Positions 6,472 to 64,000 of a stretch of DNA of 64,000 nt are shown one piece after another. The stretch lies in assembly GCA_036006525.1 (NCBI GenBank), contig DASYPP010000047.1, forward strand, positions 8,077-72,076, written 5' to 3'. The notes under the pieces were generated by a model, which saw nothing but the letters and a program-made list of their open reading frames with translations, made no database searches and was not told where the DNA came from. The translations under genes and the position numbers were made by a program. This stretch comes from Gemmatimonadales bacterium (lineage in GTDB: Bacteria > Gemmatimonadota > Gemmatimonadetes > Gemmatimonadales > GWC2-71-9). Each line of letters begins with the position of its first letter. Positions within the stretch are counted from its first letter, which is position 1.

Positions 6472-8049
6472 CTAGTCGGACCCGCGTACCGTGTGGATGT
6501 TGGTCGAGAAGGTGAGTCCCTTCCCCACCGCGATCACCCACCCGGCGCCCTCCACATCGGTCGCGAAGCGACGCGCCAGGTCAATGCGGATCGCCTCCAC
6601 CCCGGACGCCCGGCTGGCGCCGAGCCGGAGACCGAGGCCCGCATCCCAGCCGGTCCGCCGGGGCGCACCATGATACCAGGCGCCGCCGTAGTCGACGAAG
6701 CCGGCCAGGCCGATCCCGAACAGCTGCCAGATCTCTTCCTTCACGACATAGCGGTATTCGGCCGTCGTGTAGAACGAGCGATCGCCAGTGAAGGCGTGGG
6801 AGCGAAAGGCCCGGGGTCCGGTGCCCAGGCCCATGTCGAACTCCTGGCCGGGCAGCGGTCGCTCGAGCCACCCTCCATCGGCATGGGCGATGAGCGTGTG
6901 CCGGGCGCCGGGTTGCAGCACCAGGGTGCCGCTCACCACCACCGATCCCGAATCCAGCCCGTTGGCGTCGTACAATCCATCGGCCAGGAGATCGGCGAAG
7001 AGGTAGCCCGCGCCAAAGGAGGTGCCCGTCTTTGCCTGCACCTGAGGGGCGAGACCATCACGCTGATAATTGAACGCCCGGGGAGCGGCGAGCACCCCGA
7101 TCCGCACCAGGGTGCTCACGTCCACGTCCTCTTCCCGGCCGAAGCCCTGGTAGGAGCGGGTCAGCACGTATCGAGATCTCCGCCATTCCACGAAGGGACC
7201 CAGGGCGTAGGTCGCTTCGCTCGGGGATAAAAATGAGGACGCTGACTCGGGGCGGTAACGATCCTTGCGGGCCTGGGCCGTGATTCCGGCGCGCAGGTAG
7301 CCGCGCTCGGAAGCGCCCAGCGCGACGCCGCCTTCGACCCGCAACAACTGGTAGTCCCGCCGAATGCTGTCCGACGCGACGCGCTCGCCCTCGAAAAAGC
7401 GGAGCACCCGCTCGTTGCGATCGTCAAAGAGGAAGAGCAGGCTGTTCTGGGAAGCCTGGGAGTAGAACGGCTTGCCGACCAGCGCGGCGAAGCGCCGGCC
7501 ATCGGAGCGATCCTGGAAAATGGTCTCCAGCCGGAGCTGGGGCCAGATGAACCGCGGCTGCAGGAAGCCGAAGGAGGTGCTGGTCCGGTCCGCCGAGTGG
7601 CGGTAGCGGATGGAAGCCTGGGTCGCCGTGCCCAGGACGTTGTCTTCGATGAAAGCGATGGTGTAATCCGCCTGGCCACCCGTGCTCTTGAACCGGTAGT
7701 CGGGGCGGGTGCTCCAGCCATCGGAGGTCTCGACCCGGAGCGTCAGGCCGGAATCTCCCCGCACCGTGTCTACCACCACCCGCCGGAAGATGCCCAGGGC
7801 CCGAAGGTTCCTCGCCGTTTCGGCGGCCGCCGCGGAGTCGTACGCCTGGCCGGGATGGAGCAGCACTTCGCGACGCACCACCGATTCGCGGGTCGCGATG
7901 TGCAGGCGGTTGGCCAGCCGGGTGAGCCAGTTGCGCGCCTCGGTGGAATCGAAGACATCGTTCCGGCGGATGGCCACCGCCTGGATGACCGGCGACGCCG
8001 AATCCCCCGGGGTTTGGGCCCCGGCGGACACGGGCAGCAGGAACAGCAT
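6472..8049 (-). CDS. BamA/TamA-family outer membrane protein (POTRA plus beta-barrel)
   Basis: N-terminal POTRA-like segment (VIQAVAIRRNDVFDS..VLLHPGQAYD..AAAETARNLRALGIFRRV) followed by a surface-antigen-type barrel. Confidence 0.65.
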   Translation of the reverse strand: MLFLLPVSAGAQTPGDSASPVIQAVAIRRNDVFDSTEARNWLTRLANRLHIATRESVVRREVLLHPGQAYDSAAAAETARNLRALGIFRRVVVDTVRGDSGLTLRVETSDGWSTRPDYRFKSTGGQADYTIAFIEDNVLGTATQASIRYRHSADRTSTSFGFLQPRFIWPQLRLETIFQDRSDGRRFAALVGKPFYSQASQNSLLFLFDDRNERVLRFFEGERVASDSIRRDYQLLRVEGGVALGASERGYLRAGITAQARKDRYRPESASSFLSPSEATYALGPFVEWRRSRYVLTRSYQGFGREEDVDVSTLVRIGVLAAPRAFNYQRDGLAPQVQAKTGTSFGAGYLFADLLADGLYDANGLDSGSVVVSGTLVLQPGARHTLIAHADGGWLERPLPGQEFDMGLGTGPRAFRSHAFTGDRSFYTTAEYRYVVKEEIWQLFGIGLAGFVDYGGAWYHGAPRRTGWDAGLGLRLGASRASGVEAIRIDLARRFATDVEGAGWVIAVGKGLTFSTNIHTVRGSD

Positions 8050-8188
8050 GACGGCGGTGAGCCGGCGGAACGACAGACGGGCTCCAGAAGTGTAGGGCTG
8101 AGGAATTTAACGGGCCGGAGGTTATTGCGCCGTCACCCGTTTTCCTGGTTATCACGTCCACTGGAGCAGCAGCGATATTCCCCATTAT

Positions 8189-32877: not shown

Positions 32878-33489
32878 TTAGTTCGCGCGACCGCTGGCGA
32901 AGGGATTGGGTCCTTCTCCGGCTCCGTATGGCCGCACGGTGATCCCGAGGCTGGCGAGGAAGGCTTCGGCGGCGCGTTCGAACTTCTTGCCCACCATCAC
33001 CGCGTCGGAAGCGCTGCGAGACCCGGCATCCCGGATCGACGCGGCCCGCGCCAAGTCGGCGTACTGGTCGAACTCGGTCACACACTGAGAGAGCGCAAGG
33101 CGCAACTCGCCCTGGGCCTTGGAGACGTCATTGCGCGCCCGCAGGGATGCGCGGACCGCATACGGGCTTTCCAGCAGGTCCTGCCGGGCCGAATCAACCC
33201 CGCGGAGCGCGGTGGAGCAGGCGGTGCGCACCGCACGAGTGCGGGAGAGCAGCAGCGCGTCGCTGGCGGTCCGGATATCCCGGGTCAGCCGTGACGACGC
33301 GGCATCGATGGCCCTCAGGGTGTCGCGGAATACCAGGTACTCATCGCGCATCCGGGTCGACACCGAATCCAGCTTCGGATCGGGCTTGATGAATCCGCCC
33401 GCCTGGGCTGAGATGGAACCGGTTGCCAGCGCGAGCAGAACGGCGGAAACCGCTAGGACTCTAAGCCGACTTCTATGTAGCGATAAGAT
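32878..33489 (-). CDS. Secreted hypothetical protein, probable ATC start
   Basis: The frame of ORF 32878..33363 is open upstream and encodes a signal peptide (HRSRLRVLAVSAVLLALATGSISAQA) with no ATG/GTG/TTG. GGAGG sits 7 nt upstream of ATC 33489. Confidence 0.5.
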   Translation of the reverse strand: MLSLHRSRLRVLAVSAVLLALATGSISAQAGGFIKPDPKLDSVSTRMRDEYLVFRDTLRAIDAASSRLTRDIRTASDALLLSRTRAVRTACSTALRGVDSARQDLLESPYAVRASLRARNDVSKAQGELRLALSQCVTEFDQYADLARAASIRDAGSRSASDAVMVGKKFERAAEAFLASLGITVRPYGAGEGPNPFASGRAN

Positions 33490-34073
33490 GGTTCATCCTC
33501 CTTCGACGAAAACAGGCACCCGGCTGAGCTCGCCGCAAACCAGCCGGCCACCAGCAGGCGGGGGGCATCGAGTTCCTGGACGATTGGGGCGAGCCAGCGC
33601 CGCATGTGGCGCAACTCGGGGGGCCGGCGGCCCATCAGCGCGAGAATGGCGCCGATACCGGACGTGGCCCGGAGAAAATGGGCCAGGCCGTGCGCCCGCT
33701 GGGTGAACTCCACCACCTTGACCCCGGGCTCGTCGAAAATGACCGCGCCTTCAAAGACGTCCATCGGCGGAGCATCGAGCCGGGGACCCAGGTAGAGATA
33801 GCGGCGACCGTTGGCGGTCTTCCGCTCGATCACCGCTGCAGCGGTCTCGCTGGTGAGCCGCGCGGCGTGCAGCAGGTCATCGTCGTGGAGCGCCCCTACC
33901 GCGTTGGTCCATTCCAGGGCCGCCAGCGCGGTTTCCATGGGACACCCCATGGTATCATCGAACGCGATCATCCGCGGTGCTTCGCCTGCCCGCATAAAGA
34001 AATGGGCGAGCGCTTCCGGGCGTTCCAGGAAGGTACGGATGACCAGGGTGGAGGGCGCAGACGGTTCGGCCAT
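33453..34073 (-). CDS. Hypothetical protein
   Basis: 206-aa ORF with no recognised motif. Confidence 0.5.
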   Translation of the reverse strand: MAEPSAPSTLVIRTFLERPEALAHFFMRAGEAPRMIAFDDTMGCPMETALAALEWTNAVGALHDDDLLHAARLTSETAAAVIERKTANGRRYLYLGPRLDAPPMDVFEGAVIFDEPGVKVVEFTQRAHGLAHFLRATSGIGAILALMGRRPPELRHMRRWLAPIVQELDAPRLLVAGWFAASSAGCLFSSKEDEPSYRYIEVGLES

Positions 34074-36419: not shown

Positions 36420-36620
36420 ATGGCGAAGGGAACAGTGAAGTGGTTCAATGATGCCAAGGGGTTCGGGTTCATCGCGCAGGAAGGCGGCAAAGACGTGTTT
36501 GTGCATCACACGGCCATCCTGGCCGAGGGATTCCGTTCGCTGGCCGAGGGAGACGCCGTGGAATTCGACATTGTCGAAGGCCCCAAGGGTCTTCAGGCGT
36601 CAAACGTCCGCAAGGTCTGA
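36420..36620 (+). CDS. cspA: Cold-shock protein
   Basis: [16 protein letters not shown] (RNP1) and VFVHHTAI (RNP2). Confidence 0.9.
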
Positions 36621-36661
36621 CGCGCATCGCGGCATCTTCACCGCAGTCACGAAGTCACCCG

Positions 36662-37204
36662 ATCCAGCGACGTTTCCGGTCCCCAGCCGGCACCGTCGCT
36701 GTTTCGCTCCTGAGCCTTTGCATCGCTTCCGCGCTCTGCTTCGCCCAGGCCCCTCCCGGAGCCGAGCGGCTGAGGTTCGGGGGATTTCGGGCGGGCGACT
36801 CGCTCCCCCGCGTGGTCGCTACGCTGCAGGGACACCGGGGCCAGCGGCTCCGCTGCCTTCGATCCCACGCCGACAGCACGGTGCAGGAGTGTCGCAGCAG
36901 CTACAGCGACAGCGTGAGCCGGCGCCCGGTCGAGGTGTGGCTCAGCGCCATCGGTGACAAGGCCGCCATTCTCACCCTCAAGACCGAGGGCAGCCCGGCT
37001 TTGCTGGAGCTCTGGCGCGCCGACCTCTCCCGACGATATGGCCAGGTAGAGACCCGGGTCCAGGGATCTCAAAGGATGATGCAGTGGGTCAGGCAGGGCC
37101 GGATGATACGGCTGACCTGGCGCACCGACCGCTGGGCCCCGGCCATCTCGGTGAGCCTGGTGGACGGCCATATCCTTGACGCCTGGGGAGAAAAACGGGA
37201 ATAG
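36662..37204 (+). CDS. Secreted hypothetical protein, start uncertain
   Basis: The frame of ORF 36812..37204 is open upstream and encodes QRRFRSPAGTVAVSLLSLCIASALCFAQA with no canonical start. ATC codons occur at 36626 and 36662. Confidence 0.4.
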   Translation: MQRRFRSPAGTVAVSLLSLCIASALCFAQAPPGAERLRFGGFRAGDSLPRVVATLQGHRGQRLRCLRSHADSTVQECRSSYSDSVSRRPVEVWLSAIGDKAAILTLKTEGSPALLELWRADLSRRYGQVETRVQGSQRMMQWVRQGRMIRLTWRTDRWAPAISVSLVDGHILDAWGEKRE

Positions 37205-43155: not shown

Positions 43156-43560
43156 CTACTTGATCTCCAACTCCAGGTCCTCGTCGTAGGCCCGGTGGGG
43201 AAGGCAGAAAATCCGGTATTTTCCCTTCGGAACTGACCGTGGAATCACGATTTCGTAGCTGTCGTTCTGGCGCATCAGGGGCCCGCGAAGGTCCCCGACC
43301 CGCCGGGGGAGCGCCCGGTTCCAGGCCTCGTGAACCGCGGGGGTCATCCCCTGGGGATCGACGCCAAGAGCATGGGGTGCCCCGCTCTCCGCGTGGAAGA
43401 CCAGGGTGTCTCCGGGACTCGCCGTAAGGTCGTCCGGGGACATCTCATGGCTGACATTCTCGCCTCCGGTCAGGTCAATGCGATGGGAGCGGACGGCCGG
43501 AGCCGGGCCGGCCCCGAGACCGAGGCAAAGGACTGCGGAAACCGCGAAAAGCTTTATGAT
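43156..43560 (-). CDS. Cupredoxin-like (plastocyanin/pseudoazurin family) protein, start uncertain
   Basis: H..CLPH..-type copper-ligand spacing (FHAESGAPH, FCLPHRAY). The signal peptide IIKLFAVSAVLCLGLGAGPAPA is preceded only by ATC/ATA. Confidence 0.5.
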   Translation of the reverse strand: MIKLFAVSAVLCLGLGAGPAPAVRSHRIDLTGGENVSHEMSPDDLTASPGDTLVFHAESGAPHALGVDPQGMTPAVHEAWNRALPRRVGDLRGPLMRQNDSYEIVIPRSVPKGKYRIFCLPHRAYDEDLELEIK

Positions 43561-61150: not shown

Positions 61151-61247
61151 GGCGGCAACAGGCGGTAGTGGGCGGTAGTGGGCGGTATAAGGCGGTAAAC
61201 ACATACCACCTATTACCGCCCTTTACCGTCTATTACCGCCTTTTACG
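61151..61247. repeat. Oligomer-tandem palindrome (GGCGGTAGTG decamers)
   Basis: Left arm GGCGGCAACA GGCGGTAGTG GGCGGTAGTG GGCGGTATAA GGCGGTAA. Right arm CCACCTATTACCGCCCTTTACCGTCTATTACCGCCTTTTACG. Confidence 0.85.
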
Positions 61248-62385
61248 ATTTGATTTCCGTCCAGATCTGATCCCACAACTGCGTGTCGGCGCCCAGGTCC
61301 ACCTGGTACTCGAGCCGGGTGAGTTCTTCGGTCGAGGGATAGGGTACCGGGGTGGCGAGGACCGCCTTGGCGTTGGGCGAGCCGTATCCGGTGAAATTGG
61401 AAATCGCCGAGGCGACTTCGGGTCGCATGATGTAATTCATGAATTCATGCGCGGCCCGGGGGTGCTGCGAGGACTTGGGGATCACCAGCGAGTCGGACCA
61501 GATGGTGCAGCCTTCCTTGGGCAGCACGTACCCCAGGTTGGGCTGCGAGACCTTGGCCTGGCTGGTGTCGCCGTTCCACAGCTGGGCGATGTGAACGTCG
61601 CCGGCGATCAGCTGGTCCTTGACCGGTGCCGAGATGTAGGCCTTGAGATGGGCCTTGGCTGCGATGGCGTCGGCCTTCGCTTCCTGCAGCTCGGTGGGGT
61701 TCCGCGAATTCAGGGAATGTCCCTTGAAGCGGAGGAAGGCGCCGATCACTTCGCGCCCGTCGTCCATCATGGTCATTTTCTTGTGATACTGGGCATTCTG
61801 GAAGACGGCCCAGCTGTCCGGCGCCGGCGTCACCTTGTCGGTCCGGTAGGCGATGCCCGTGGTTCCCCACTGCCATGGCACCGTGTAGCGATTGCCGGGA
61901 TCGGTCGCCAGGTCCCGGAAAATGGGAGACATGTTGACGCTGTTGGTGAGGTACTTGGGGTTGATCGGCTGGATCAGGTTGGTGGCGGTGAGCACCGGGA
62001 TGATGTAGCCGGAGGGCACCACCAGGTCGTACCCGGCCGCGCCGGCCTGCAGCTTGGCCACCATCTCCTCGTTGCTCTCATAGGTATCGTAGGTGACCTT
62101 CACCCCGAATTCCTTCTCGAAGTTGGGCACCGTGTCTTCCGCGATATAGTCCGACCAGTTGTAGATGTTGAGCTCTTTCTCGATCGGGCCCAGGTCGGCC
62201 ATCGCCGTAGTACTGTCGGCGCCGGGAGTCTTGTCGCCTTCTTTCTTGGCGCACGAGGCCAGCACCATCCCGATGGTGCTCAGGCTCAACCCCAGCGCCA
62301 TGCCACGGGTGACGAACTCACGGCGGCTCACGCCTCCACTCATGACCTCATTCACCAGCTTCTCCGCTTCTTTCTTTGTGCTCAC
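61243..62385 (-). CDS. PotD/PotF-like spermidine/putrescine-binding protein with Tat-type signal
   Basis: SRREFVTRGMALGLSL twin-arginine leader. IYNWSDYI motif. AGGAGG sits 4 nt upstream of GTG 62385. Confidence 0.85.
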   Translation of the reverse strand: MSTKKEAEKLVNEVMSGGVSRREFVTRGMALGLSLSTIGMVLASCAKKEGDKTPGADSTTAMADLGPIEKELNIYNWSDYIAEDTVPNFEKEFGVKVTYDTYESNEEMVAKLQAGAAGYDLVVPSGYIIPVLTATNLIQPINPKYLTNSVNMSPIFRDLATDPGNRYTVPWQWGTTGIAYRTDKVTPAPDSWAVFQNAQYHKKMTMMDDGREVIGAFLRFKGHSLNSRNPTELQEAKADAIAAKAHLKAYISAPVKDQLIAGDVHIAQLWNGDTSQAKVSQPNLGYVLPKEGCTIWSDSLVIPKSSQHPRAAHEFMNYIMRPEVASAISNFTGYGSPNAKAVLATPVPYPSTEELTRLEYQVDLGADTQLWDQIWTEIKS

Positions 62386-62397
62386 AAGTCCTCCTGG

Positions 62398-62424
62398 AAG
62401 GCGGTAAGGCGGTCAGGCGGTCAG
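62398..62424. repeat. Octamer tandem AAGGCGGT filling an intercistronic gap
   Basis: AAGGCGGT AAGGCGGT CAGGCGGT CAG, between the oxidase stop (62421) and the potD-like SD/start. Confidence 0.7.
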
Positions 62425-63719
62425 TGATCCAGCAGATCTCGTAATCGAAACCAGGCTCCCGCCAGCGGCAAGAACCAGGGACGGCCATTGTACAGCGGGA
62501 TAGCGGGAAAGTCCAATCCGGCAATGGGGGGCGGGTCCCCTCCCGCCATATACTCACCCATTCGATGGCCGAGGTAAAGGGACATGGCCACACCGTGTCC
62601 GCCATAGCAGCAGGCGTAGGCTATTCCGTTCAGGCGCCCGGCGTGGGGCACCTGGTCCCGGGCAAATCCCAGCGTGCCGGACCAGCTGAAATCGACCGGG
62701 GTCTCCGCCAGCTCCGGGAAAATCACGACCATGTCCCGGCGGAGACGCGCCGCGGCCGCCGCGGTCGAGATGGGAGAAAAGGCGGCCCGCCCCCCGAACA
62801 GCAGCCGGCCGTCGCCCGACAGGCGATAGTAGTGCAGCAGGTGGCGGCAATCACTCACGACCCGGCCCTGGGGGATGAGCCGTCGCTGGAGACCGCGCTC
62901 CAGTGGCGCAGTCGCGATGATGTGACTGCCGACCGGGATCACCCGGCGGCGGAGCGCCGGATCCGGCGGTCGGTAGCCGTTAGTGGCGACCAGGACGTCG
63001 TCCGCGGTGAGCCTTCCCCGAGTGGTCTCGATCGTAAATCGGCCCCCGGTCCGGCTGACGGCCGTCACCCGGGTGTCCTCGGCTACCGTCGCTCCCGCGT
63101 CGAGCGCTGCGCGCCGCACCCCGGCCAGCAACAGTGCGGGCTGCACCGACCCGGCGCGGGGATCCAGCGCTCCTCCGACGTAACGCGCCGATCCGACTTC
63201 CTCGCCGATCCGGTCGACGCCCAGCATGGTGGTCGGATAACGGCAGCGCAGCTCCAGGAGTTCACAAGTCCGTTCGAGGTCCTCCAGCTGCCGCCGCGAC
63301 TCCGCCGCGGCCAGGTACCCGGCCCGGCGATAGTCGCACTCGATGGCTTCCTCCGCGATCAGCGATTCCACGAAAGTCATGGCGTGAAGTGATTCTTCGA
63401 ACAGCTCCAGGGCCCGGGTGAAGCCCAGCTGGCGAATGAGGCCGGACAACTCCCGCTTGTAGCCGGGCAGGACGAAGCCGCCGTTCCGGGTGCTGGCCCC
63501 CGCCCCGGCCGTCTCGGCCTCGATGACCAGGGCTTTAGCGCCCCGGCGCGCGAGCGCCCGCGCCGCGGCAAGCCCGGTGTAGCCGGCGCCGACGATGGCG
63601 ATGTCGGCGTGGGCGGGGAGCGGGTAGGTCGGGCCCCCGTGCCCGACTGGCTCCGGGCCTCCGTGCCCGACTGTAGAGACGTCAGCTTGATCCGCCGTCC
63701 AGAAAACCCCTGGAATGAT
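62421..63719 (-). CDS. FAD-dependent (DAO/PuuB-like) oxidoreductase, non-canonical ATC/ATT start
   Basis: The Rossmann motif DIAIVGAGYTGLAAARALARRG lies upstream of the first canonical start (TTG 63449) in an open frame. GGAGG sits 5 nt upstream of ATC 63719. Confidence 0.8.
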   Translation of the reverse strand: MIPGVFWTADQADVSTVGHGGPEPVGHGGPTYPLPAHADIAIVGAGYTGLAAARALARRGAKALVIEAETAGAGASTRNGGFVLPGYKRELSGLIRQLGFTRALELFEESLHAMTFVESLIAEEAIECDYRRAGYLAAAESRRQLEDLERTCELLELRCRYPTTMLGVDRIGEEVGSARYVGGALDPRAGSVQPALLLAGVRRAALDAGATVAEDTRVTAVSRTGGRFTIETTRGRLTADDVLVATNGYRPPDPALRRRVIPVGSHIIATAPLERGLQRRLIPQGRVVSDCRHLLHYYRLSGDGRLLFGGRAAFSPISTAAAAARLRRDMVVIFPELAETPVDFSWSGTLGFARDQVPHAGRLNGIAYACCYGGHGVAMSLYLGHRMGEYMAGGDPPPIAGLDFPAIPLYNGRPWFLPLAGAWFRLRDLLDH

Positions 63720-63776
63720 TTGAGCCTCCGTTGATGCATTGGTGTGAATCTGAACGAATCAGCCAACGGAGCCGTC

Positions 63777-64000
63777 ATGAAAAAACACGCACTGGAGGCG
63801 TATCGCCGGCATCTGCCTCATTGGCGCGCCCCAGAGAGTACCTATATGGTGAACTGGTGCCTTAAGACAAGGCAGCCGGATCTCTCCGGGCCTGAGCGTT
63901 CAATAGTGACTTCAGCGATTCGTCATTTCGAGGACGATCGCTATGGCTTGCACGCATTCGTCGTCATGAACGATCACGCACATGTCATCGTAACACCTCG
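63777..64000 (+). CDS. IS200/RAYT-like HUH (Y1) transposase, 3' end outside window
   Basis: RHLPHW..YMVNW and FVVMNDHAHVIV (HUH) motifs. GC and GC3 are visibly lower than in the neighbours. Confidence 0.7.
   Translation, partial: MKKHALEAYRRHLPHWRAPESTYMVNWCLKTRQPDLSGPERSIVTSAIRHFEDDRYGLHAFVVMNDHAHVIVTP

Follow-up and report, generated by a model that had tools for sequence, protein, structure and literature searches.

The oxidase locus and its reading frame

The DNA considered here, which we call the window, is a 64,000-nucleotide stretch of contig C47 of G000, a metagenome-assembled genome (MAG) of 121 contigs assigned to the Gemmatimonadales. Our subject is a gene near its end, on the minus strand, for a DAO-family FAD-dependent oxidoreductase (hereafter the oxidase; 62421..63719). 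Counted from an ATC at 63719 to the stop codon TGA at 62423-62421, it encodes 432 amino acids (aa), with no ATG, GTG or TTG ahead of its FAD-binding fold. An earlier note on this DNA had proposed that the gene is translated from this ATC, or from the ATT beside it, and that the organism uses such codons systematically. The window carries one of several versions of the locus, haplotype B, and comparison with the others suggests how its start codon came to be missing.

The product is a recognizable member of its family. It matches Pfam PF01266 (DAO) with an E value of 2.5e-63 and 215.2 bits (cut-off, 27.9), over residues 39-388 and profile positions 1-351 of 353, that is, at full length. We found 1575 homologues. 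An AlphaFold2 model has a mean pLDDT of 89.3 and exceeds 90 from the Rossmann fold onward, including its opening strand (37-43) and the helix at 47-58. This FAD-binding fold has its strand beta-1 and GxGxxG signature (DIAIVGAGYTG) encoded at 63573..63605 on the minus strand, and the three glycines (G44, G46, G49) do not vary among 45 homologues. Because the DAO profile begins at residue 39 counted from the ATC, the GxGxxG unit does lie upstream of every canonical start, as had been claimed. The oxidase resembles the PuuB/OrdL-like DAO oxidases of amines and amino acids that neighbour polyamine-type ABC transporters in its full-length PF01266 match, its GxGxxG, its operon position with a pot-like transporter and an x-[LFY]-W motif ~20-30 residues before beta-1; it differs from them in an N-terminal linker that is lengthened by inserts of repetitive extragenic palindromic (REP) elements. 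Among NCBIfam models, TIGR03329 (putative aminophosphonate oxidoreductase) and NF050086 (L-pipecolate oxidase AmaA) come nearest, and the oxidase scores far below the thresholds of both of these specific equivalogs (176.2 bits versus 632.8 and 168.6 versus 600, respectively).

Read codon by codon on the minus strand, the oxidase frame is closed upstream by an in-frame TGA (63761-63759). It then runs through 103 sense codons, none of them ATG, GTG or TTG, to a TTG at 63449-63447, the first canonical start in frame; on this point our reading and the earlier one agree. Given the genome's own coding-frame frequencies (ATG 2.0%, GTG 4.0%, TTG 0.7%; 6.7% together), such a run has a probability of ~0.001. 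Since the TTG lies downstream of the Rossmann unit, a product started there could not be an active enzyme. The Shine-Dalgarno (SD) arrangement described before is likewise present: after GGAGG (63729-63725) come CTCAA and ATC-ATT (63719-63714), in that order. The two candidate near-cognate initiators, which we also placed by alignment with haplotype A, are thus the ATC at 63719-63717, with a spacer of 5 nt, and the ATT at 63716-63714, 8 nt behind the same GGAGG. A second in-frame ATT stands farther upstream, at 63749-63747, with no SD before it. There begins P0122, a 442-aa NCBI product on a contig of 72304 nt (as long as C47), whose first residues are MHTNASTEAQIIPGVFW.

The oxidase is flanked by two genes. 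Divergent from it on the plus strand is RAYT-B, a REP-associated tyrosine transposase (RAYT) with a Y1_Tnp domain, whose 5' part occupies 63777..64000 and which extends to the end of contig C47, ~230 nt past the end of the window. On the other side, also on the minus strand, lies a gene for a PotD/PotF-like ABC solute-binding protein (SBP; 61243..62385; Pfam SBP_bac_8), which begins with GTG 4 nt after a GGAGG. A promoter scan of the RAYT-oxidase intergenic region returned no sigma-70-like promoter, and the RNA fold of that region was no better than those of shuffled sequences (z = -0.13), which gives no support for a structured leader.

Haplotypes of the locus and the lost start codon

A second copy of the oxidase's first 124 codons is present in the same MAG, at the very end of contig C74. 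The gene order there is an ABC permease, RAYT-A (on the opposite strand) and the 5' end of the oxidase, whose N-terminus reads MSPGAGIGEVFWTATGTGTEARPT...VGHGGPTYPLP from a canonical GTG start (haplotype A). In a sister species, G004, a permease (95% identical to that of C74), a RAYT, the oxidase and an SBP gene (91% identical to that of the window) lie in this order on one contig, and the ends of C74 and C47 are therefore one and the same place on the chromosome. The two abutting regions (G000:C74:90524-92400 and C47:70400-72304) overlap as alternative haplotypes, and over its final 82 nt C74 matches C47 exactly, in the manner of a junction in an assembly graph. On this contig evidence we take the MAG to hold two haplotypes of one oxidase locus, not two loci.

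From the last REP onward, haplotypes A and B are ~97% identical, while the arms upstream of it are deeply diverged, with 60% identity between RAYT-A and RAYT-B. Contigs from elsewhere carry the same gene with other combinations of arm and body. On a JGI contig (L016), an A-type start is joined to a gene body 99.7% identical to that of the window, and a Logan contig (L046) contains RAYT-A, a whole oxidase gene with an A-type start and the start of the SBP gene. A third arm, haplotype C (L045), stands on a body at least 90% identical, and its in-frame GTG lies 14 codons ahead of the conserved Trp discussed below. Between G000 and G004 the permeases are 95% and the SBPs 91% identical, the oxidases only 76% and the RAYTs about 55-60%. 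The sharp difference that near-identical strains show here in their RAYTs and in the 5' end of the oxidase gene sets the locus apart from described REP/RAYT systems. The oxidase/RAYT locus, where bodies that are at least 90% identical carry three distinct N-terminal arms, appears to be evolving fast.

The segment upstream of the TTG has the marks of protein-coding sequence. As a leader it ranks second in coding-likeness among 2646 modelled genes. Its Val-Phe-Trp codons (63699..63707, minus strand) encode the family's conserved N-terminal Trp motif, and Trp7 is kept in at least 90% of the 45 homologues. Haplotypes A and B both encode VFWTA, with synonymous codons (GTC TTT versus GTT TTC), and in both the oxidase frame stays in register through REP inserts of differing length. 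From the conservation of Trp7, the synonymous retention of VFWTA and the maintained frame, we judge this N-terminal segment to be coding. If so, an active enzyme made from haplotype B would have to start upstream of the Trp, at a near-cognate codon. Orthologues start 2-14 codons before this Trp, and the ATC and ATT of the window lie 6 and 5 codons before it.

How B came to lack a start is suggested by a conserved intergenic block. In the window the block is CAACGGAGGCTCAAAT (63718..63733, minus strand); it includes the GGAGG at 63729-63725, and only 17 nt separate it from the Trp codon, with no canonical start between them. In haplotype A the block is CAACTGAAGCTCAAAT, 53 nt from the Trp codon with a GTG start; in haplotype C it is CAACCGAGTCTCAAAT, about 60 nt away with a GTG start; and in G004 it is GGTGAGGCTCAAAC, 81 nt away with an ATG start. 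The block of A stands at the same distance from its own RAYT start as does that of B. When the two are aligned on the block, 36 nt of A (GAACGGGGGATAGAAAGCCGTGTCGCCTGGAGCCGG), the GTG start included, are absent from B, and the junction, directly 3' of the block, joins its end (...GGAGGCTCAAAT) to ATT-...-VFW. The ATC at 63719 arises at this junction, and the ATT at 63716 has its homologue in the Ile7 codon of haplotype A. The window's allele thus lost its start through a deletion of ~36 nt, which befell a single haplotype of this hypervariable RAYT/REP locus. The idea of an initiation site at ATC or ATT behind GGAGG is borne out in so far as the position fits the starts of orthologues and the spacing is normal, but the GGAGG was not built as a ribosome-binding site. 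Nor is the codon conserved: the corresponding starts are GTG, GTG and ATG in haplotypes A and C and in G004, none of them AUA, AUC or AUU (AUH).

An assembly artefact could also leave a gene without a start, either because the last ~600 nt of C47 are chimeric at the REP or Rossmann sequence or because a local indel hides a start that is really canonical. The MAG does consist of 121 contigs, the junction is less than 600 nt from the end of one of them, one gene body of the MAG has two alternative 5' ends, and the identity between the window and haplotype A begins exactly at a dispersed 24-nt repeat, the second REP copy in the oxidase (REP-2). A chimera would nonetheless leave the problem where it was. 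The B arm itself has a homologous N-terminus with VFWTA and no start, so that whichever organism owns the arm would be without a start codon, and the arm has a single-nucleotide polymorphism of its own in REP-2. Two ATG codons could be brought into frame by a 1-nt change, and we consider neither likely to be the true start. An insertion would frame the ATG at 63739-63737, which lacks an SD and corresponds to ATA in haplotype A; the ATG at 63778, which lies in the same frame as that one and out of frame with the oxidase, also has no SD and merely overlaps the RAYT start codon on the reverse strand. Finally, few other genes have coding-like leaders, so the assembly is not prone to indels. Altogether, an artefact strikes us as improbable.

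If the deletion is real, haplotype B might be an effective null, a recent loss in one strain in which the gene is silent and decaying, with the A-type GTG allele as the functional one. Haplotypes A and C, G004 and more distant orthologues all keep a canonical start, haplotype B is seen in one contig only, and the locus, with its three arms, is visibly unstable. In E. coli, moreover, AUA, AUC, AUU and CUG initiate at just 1-2% of AUG (Hecht et al., bioRxiv 10.1101/063800), and the GGAGG was inherited from the conserved block, not evolved. Other features speak against a null. The frame of haplotype B is open and in register across both REPs, VFWTA is preserved in the deeply diverged B arm, and the body is free of disabling mutations (a 445-aa open frame with no internal stops). 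A strong SD at good spacing from AUC and AUU would allow some initiation, and the genus has a conserved AUC start, described below. On balance we think a null allele unlikely, if by no means far-fetched.

Our tentative preference, which we would not call probable, is that allele B is real in cells and still translated, from AUC or AUU, as a hypomorph and not a null. The window would then carry haplotype B of a rapidly evolving locus, where an ABC permease is followed by a RAYT on the opposite strand, the FAD oxidase and the SBP, and in which ~36 nt between the block and the ATT before Val-Phe-Trp, where the other haplotypes hold their GTG or ATG start, have been lost. The full-length B enzyme would start at the junction-made AUC, 5 nt after GGAGG, or at the AUU, 8 nt after it, and less likely at the SD-less AUU at 63749; initiation would be by ordinary fMet-tRNA and weak, like that of near-cognate codons in E. 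coli. Among canonical starts of this genome that follow a GGAGG, the spacer is 4 nt in 46 genes, 5 in 21, 6 in 15, 7 in 16 and 8 in 9, which places both codons in range and slightly favours the ATC. In position and in distance from the SD, both are what a genuine AUH start should be, and the start at 33489 (see below), identical in four species, argues that AUC is demonstrably usable in the genus.

Several observations weigh against a translated allele B. Its GGAGG mostly pre-existed in the block (G004 has GAGG and haplotype C has GAGT), and a motif largely inherited in this way does not show that a ribosome-binding site evolved here. Searches of metagenome contigs for the B arm, in which records of this genome itself may lie outside the searched set, gave 0 hits to a wobble-tolerant pattern for PGVFWTADQADV and, for the RAYT-B protein, only relatives of at most 54% identity in unrelated contexts. 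With the same limit on the searched set, no record matched the exact oxidase product of the TTG start, with either L or M as first residue. If the deletion, or a recombination between arm and body, happened recently, the intact body tells us nothing about function. The anatomy of the locus, the haplotypes and the deletion can be read off the contigs, whereas the presence of allele B in cells and its translation are what we infer from these same sequences.

REP elements within the oxidase and their RAYT transposases

The N-terminal linker of the oxidase contains two REP copies, both on the minus strand. Copy 1 (GTCGGGCACGGAGGCCCG, 63654..63671), read in frame as VGHGGP, is without the end of its 3' arm and without the CTAC tag. 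Copy 2, REP-2 (GTCGGGCACGGGGGCCCGACCTAC, 63624..63647), is complete (GTCGGGC-ACGGGG-GCCCGAC plus CTAC) and is read in frame as VGHGGPTY; its hairpin forms in the minimum-free-energy fold. The family unit is G-GTCGGGC-ACGGAG-GCCCGAC-CTAC, a hairpin with a stem of 7-8 bp and a GTAG/CTAC tag. A genome-wide motif scan with the core CGGGCACGGAGGCCCG gave 32 exact copies, 49 with 1 mismatch allowed and 72 with 2, dispersed over many contigs and often in clusters, and most of the 49 listed copies have the CTAC tag after the stem, as REP-2 does. What had been described as a 24-nt tandem duplication is therefore real as a repeat (VGHGGPEP/VGHGGPTY) and mistaken as to origin: no sequence was doubled on the spot, the two units being separate copies of a dispersed element, and Tandem Repeats Finder gave the repeat no score.

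Residues 10-27 of the oxidase model have pLDDT values below 50, with a block mean of 45 for residues 21-30, and the REP-coded residues 17-32 fall mostly within this low-confidence stretch. The model is consistent with a disordered linker insert that is translated as part of the N-terminus, formed by the RAYT's own REP hairpins. On the strand that is read in the oxidase, all three frames of the REP are free of stop codons.

Both haplotypes pair these elements with a RAYT. REPs in inverted orientation stand on both sides of RAYT-A (C74 91443-91922), one of them at 91409 (minus strand) and two at 92045 and 92100 (plus strand); for RAYT-B only one flank is visible, with contig C47 ending in the gene. 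Matches to Pfam Y1_Tnp (PF01797) have E values of 1.1e-11 for RAYT-A and 1.1e-9 for the 150-aa partial product of RAYT-B, in which the H-A-H of the HUH motif is visible in VVMNDHAHVIV. A 74-aa fragment of RAYT-B scored 29 bits against the NCBIfam model REP_Tyr_transpos, below its cut-off of 80.

A RAYT flanked by inverted REPs is the classical arrangement of GTAG REPs and RAYTs (Nunvar 2010, PMC2817692; Bertels & Rainey 2011, PMC3116915; Di Nocera 2013, PMC3733652). The elements described here resemble those systems in their G+C stem of 7-8 bp with a tag, their tens of clustered copies and a RAYT of the Y1/HUH type. Di Nocera 2013 reported REPs inside open reading frames (ORFs), N-termini included, and cited in-frame Rickettsia palindromic elements (PMC3733652); the text of that paper contains 0 occurrences of Gemmatimonadales. 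Copies in the window's genome are similarly read in frame in linkers and protein N-termini. The window's RAYT departs from described systems in that its own flanking REPs lie within the coding N-terminus of the neighbouring gene.

Other genes of the MAG also contain REPs. A 2-oxoacid dehydrogenase E2 (G000:C2:15751-17161, minus strand), with lipoyl, E3-binding and catalytic domains, has four in-frame copies read as SGTEARPT, three in the first Ala/Pro linker (at two intervals of 48 nt) and one in the second linker. An MnmA-like tRNA thiolase (G000:C93:40281-41406, plus strand) has a REP in frame as VGHGGPTY inside its C-terminal barrel region, and in another long ORF (G000:C4:150729-152178, minus strand) a REP is read from the opposite strand as VSRASVPD.

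Oxidases of related genomes carry hairpins of a different sequence in the same linker. In G004 (L002, G004:C409 ~8043-8065) the hairpin is GCCGGCG-GGGA-CGCCGGC-G-CTAC, at the position equivalent to that of the window's REPs, and in haplotype C (L045 1598-1620) it is GCCGGCC-GGGA-GGCCGGC-GTTAC, at the same linker position. We considered whether the G004 hairpin belongs to a high-copy REP family and rejected this, as only 4 copies within 3 mismatches occur in G004; it is REP-like and low-copy.

Near-cognate starts elsewhere in the window and the genome

The proposal of systematic AUC/AUU use had rested on the oxidase together with three other genes of the window, and all three hold up against their orthologues. 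The first encodes an exported protein ending at 32878 (minus strand; start region 33453-33504), in which GAAGGAGG is followed after 7 nt by an ATC at 33489, and the signal peptide has no canonical start before it. A 30-nt stretch at this site, GAAGGAGGATGAACCATCTTATCGCTACAT, is identical in G000, G004, G001 and G002. An ATG that overlaps the site (ATGA) belongs to a different frame, and in two of the genomes that frame ends after 7 codons. The site at 33489 appears to be either a conserved AUC start or a site of coupled re-initiation. The second gene (36617-36812, plus strand) encodes a signal-peptide protein downstream of a csp-like gene and has no evident SD; its start at 36662 reads ATC CAG CGA CGT in G000 and ATG CAG CGA CGG in G004, so that ATC has replaced the start. 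In the third, for a cupredoxin-like exported protein (43555-43560, minus strand), the start ATG has become ATA: G000 has GGGGGTAACC-ATC-ATA-AAG-CTT where G004 has GGGGGTACCC-ACT-ATG-AAG-CTT, and the start is ATG in G002 as well. With the oxidase, these make four genes without a canonical start between 33489 and 63719 (31 kb), three of them exported.

We then looked for the same pattern across the genome. Our home-made gene model (2713 ORFs) misses or mis-frames about one-fifth of genes, two of the companion genes included, which made the first start surveys insensitive, and we repeated them on all coding-like ORFs. At coding onsets without a nearby canonical start, ATC accounted for 4 of the 78 codons found 4-9 nt behind a strong SD and for 12 of 332 behind a weak one; against a usage of ~4%, this is no enrichment. 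We also screened ~640 coding-like ORFs whose first hydrophobic segment resembles a signal peptide or first transmembrane (TM) helix. A canonical start was within reach, at 15 codons or less, in 624 of them; 17 have none, and of these ~3-5 are convincing. Beyond the window, the same screen offers only ~2-3 further candidates in 3.7 Mb (e.g., C65 minus ~25043 and C69 minus ~76614; minus-strand positions on C65, C69 and C40 are counted on the reverse-complemented contig). Genes with a far-upstream canonical start followed by a non-coding spacer are few genome-wide. By these counts AUH starts appear to be rare in the genome, yet oddly clustered in the window.

These surveys bear on whether AUC, AUU and AUA are regular, selected start codons of this organism, with the oxidase as one instance. 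Four genes without a canonical start within 31 kb would fit such usage, as would the conservation of the ATC at 33489 in four species, the alignment of the ATC at 36662 with an ATG of G004, that of the ATA at 43555 with an ATG of G004 at the start position of G002, and the 442-aa NCBI oxidase product that begins at an ATT. On the other hand, the codons behind SD motifs at coding onsets follow plain codon usage, and just ~3-5 of the ~640 signal-peptide- or TM-like N-termini have no reachable canonical start, two of them in the window. The oxidase case itself arose by deletion, not by codon substitution. We therefore hold regular use to be very improbable: the orthologue-supported companions stand, and the genome-wide claim does not.

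The initiator tRNA and IF3, which the earlier note had advised inspecting for unusual features, gave no sign of an altered initiation machinery. The anticodon stem of the initiator tRNA contains the three canonical G:C pairs, and infC looks conventional. This gene (G000:C76 ~8012, plus strand) probably makes IF3 from a weak CTG start, in the arrangement GGGAGG-TGGCG-CTG, where no GTG is near except one that overlaps the SD; such a CTG would be the usual weak-start autoregulatory design. Elsewhere in the genome, CTG codons behind an SD, with no canonical start for 20-49 codons, are plausible starts at C69 (minus) 49975, C2 (plus) 31348, C40 (minus) 60721 and C19 (plus) 25989; by their look, the N-termini are those of a signal peptide, an SSS-type symporter, an FAH-family protein and a YihY/BrkB-like protein.

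Natural AUU start codons occur in E. coli infC and pcnB, and the AUU of infC is conserved and regulatory. The oxidase resembles these genes in having an AUH codon behind an SD at normal spacing, to be read by an ordinary initiator tRNA at low efficiency. It is unlike infC in that its AUH codon came from a deletion in one haplotype and the sister haplotypes have GTG, with neither conservation nor regulation in evidence.

Every element of this locus is of a known kind: near-cognate starts, GTAG REPs with their RAYTs, and REPs inside coding regions. What is particular is their combination, in which a RAYT's REPs lie in the N-terminus of its neighbour, the 5' end of that gene is hypervariable, and a deletion haplotype has no more than AUC/AUU behind a fortuitous GGAGG. 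The genome-wide counts do not support a changed initiation code, and a small local set of orthologue-supported AUH starts remains. That AUC, AUA and AUU are tolerated or selected as weak initiators in this lineage, with a local and possibly regulatory use that has likewise kept the oxidase alive, seems to us a rather doubtful extension of these data. If true, the tolerance of AUH codons would mean a local, possibly regulatory use of weak starts, in a set of four genes of which three are exported. For annotation, the consequence is that automatic callers either truncate such a gene, with the loss of its Rossmann fold, or rescue it with an arbitrary ATT, and users of MAGs should note that two contigs of this bin are alternative haplotypes of one locus. 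The loss of the oxidase start is explained by the instability of the locus rather than by an unusual initiation system. A RAYT/REP locus can, on this evidence, remodel the 5' end of a neighbouring gene, in that REPs become protein and a deletion removes the start codon.

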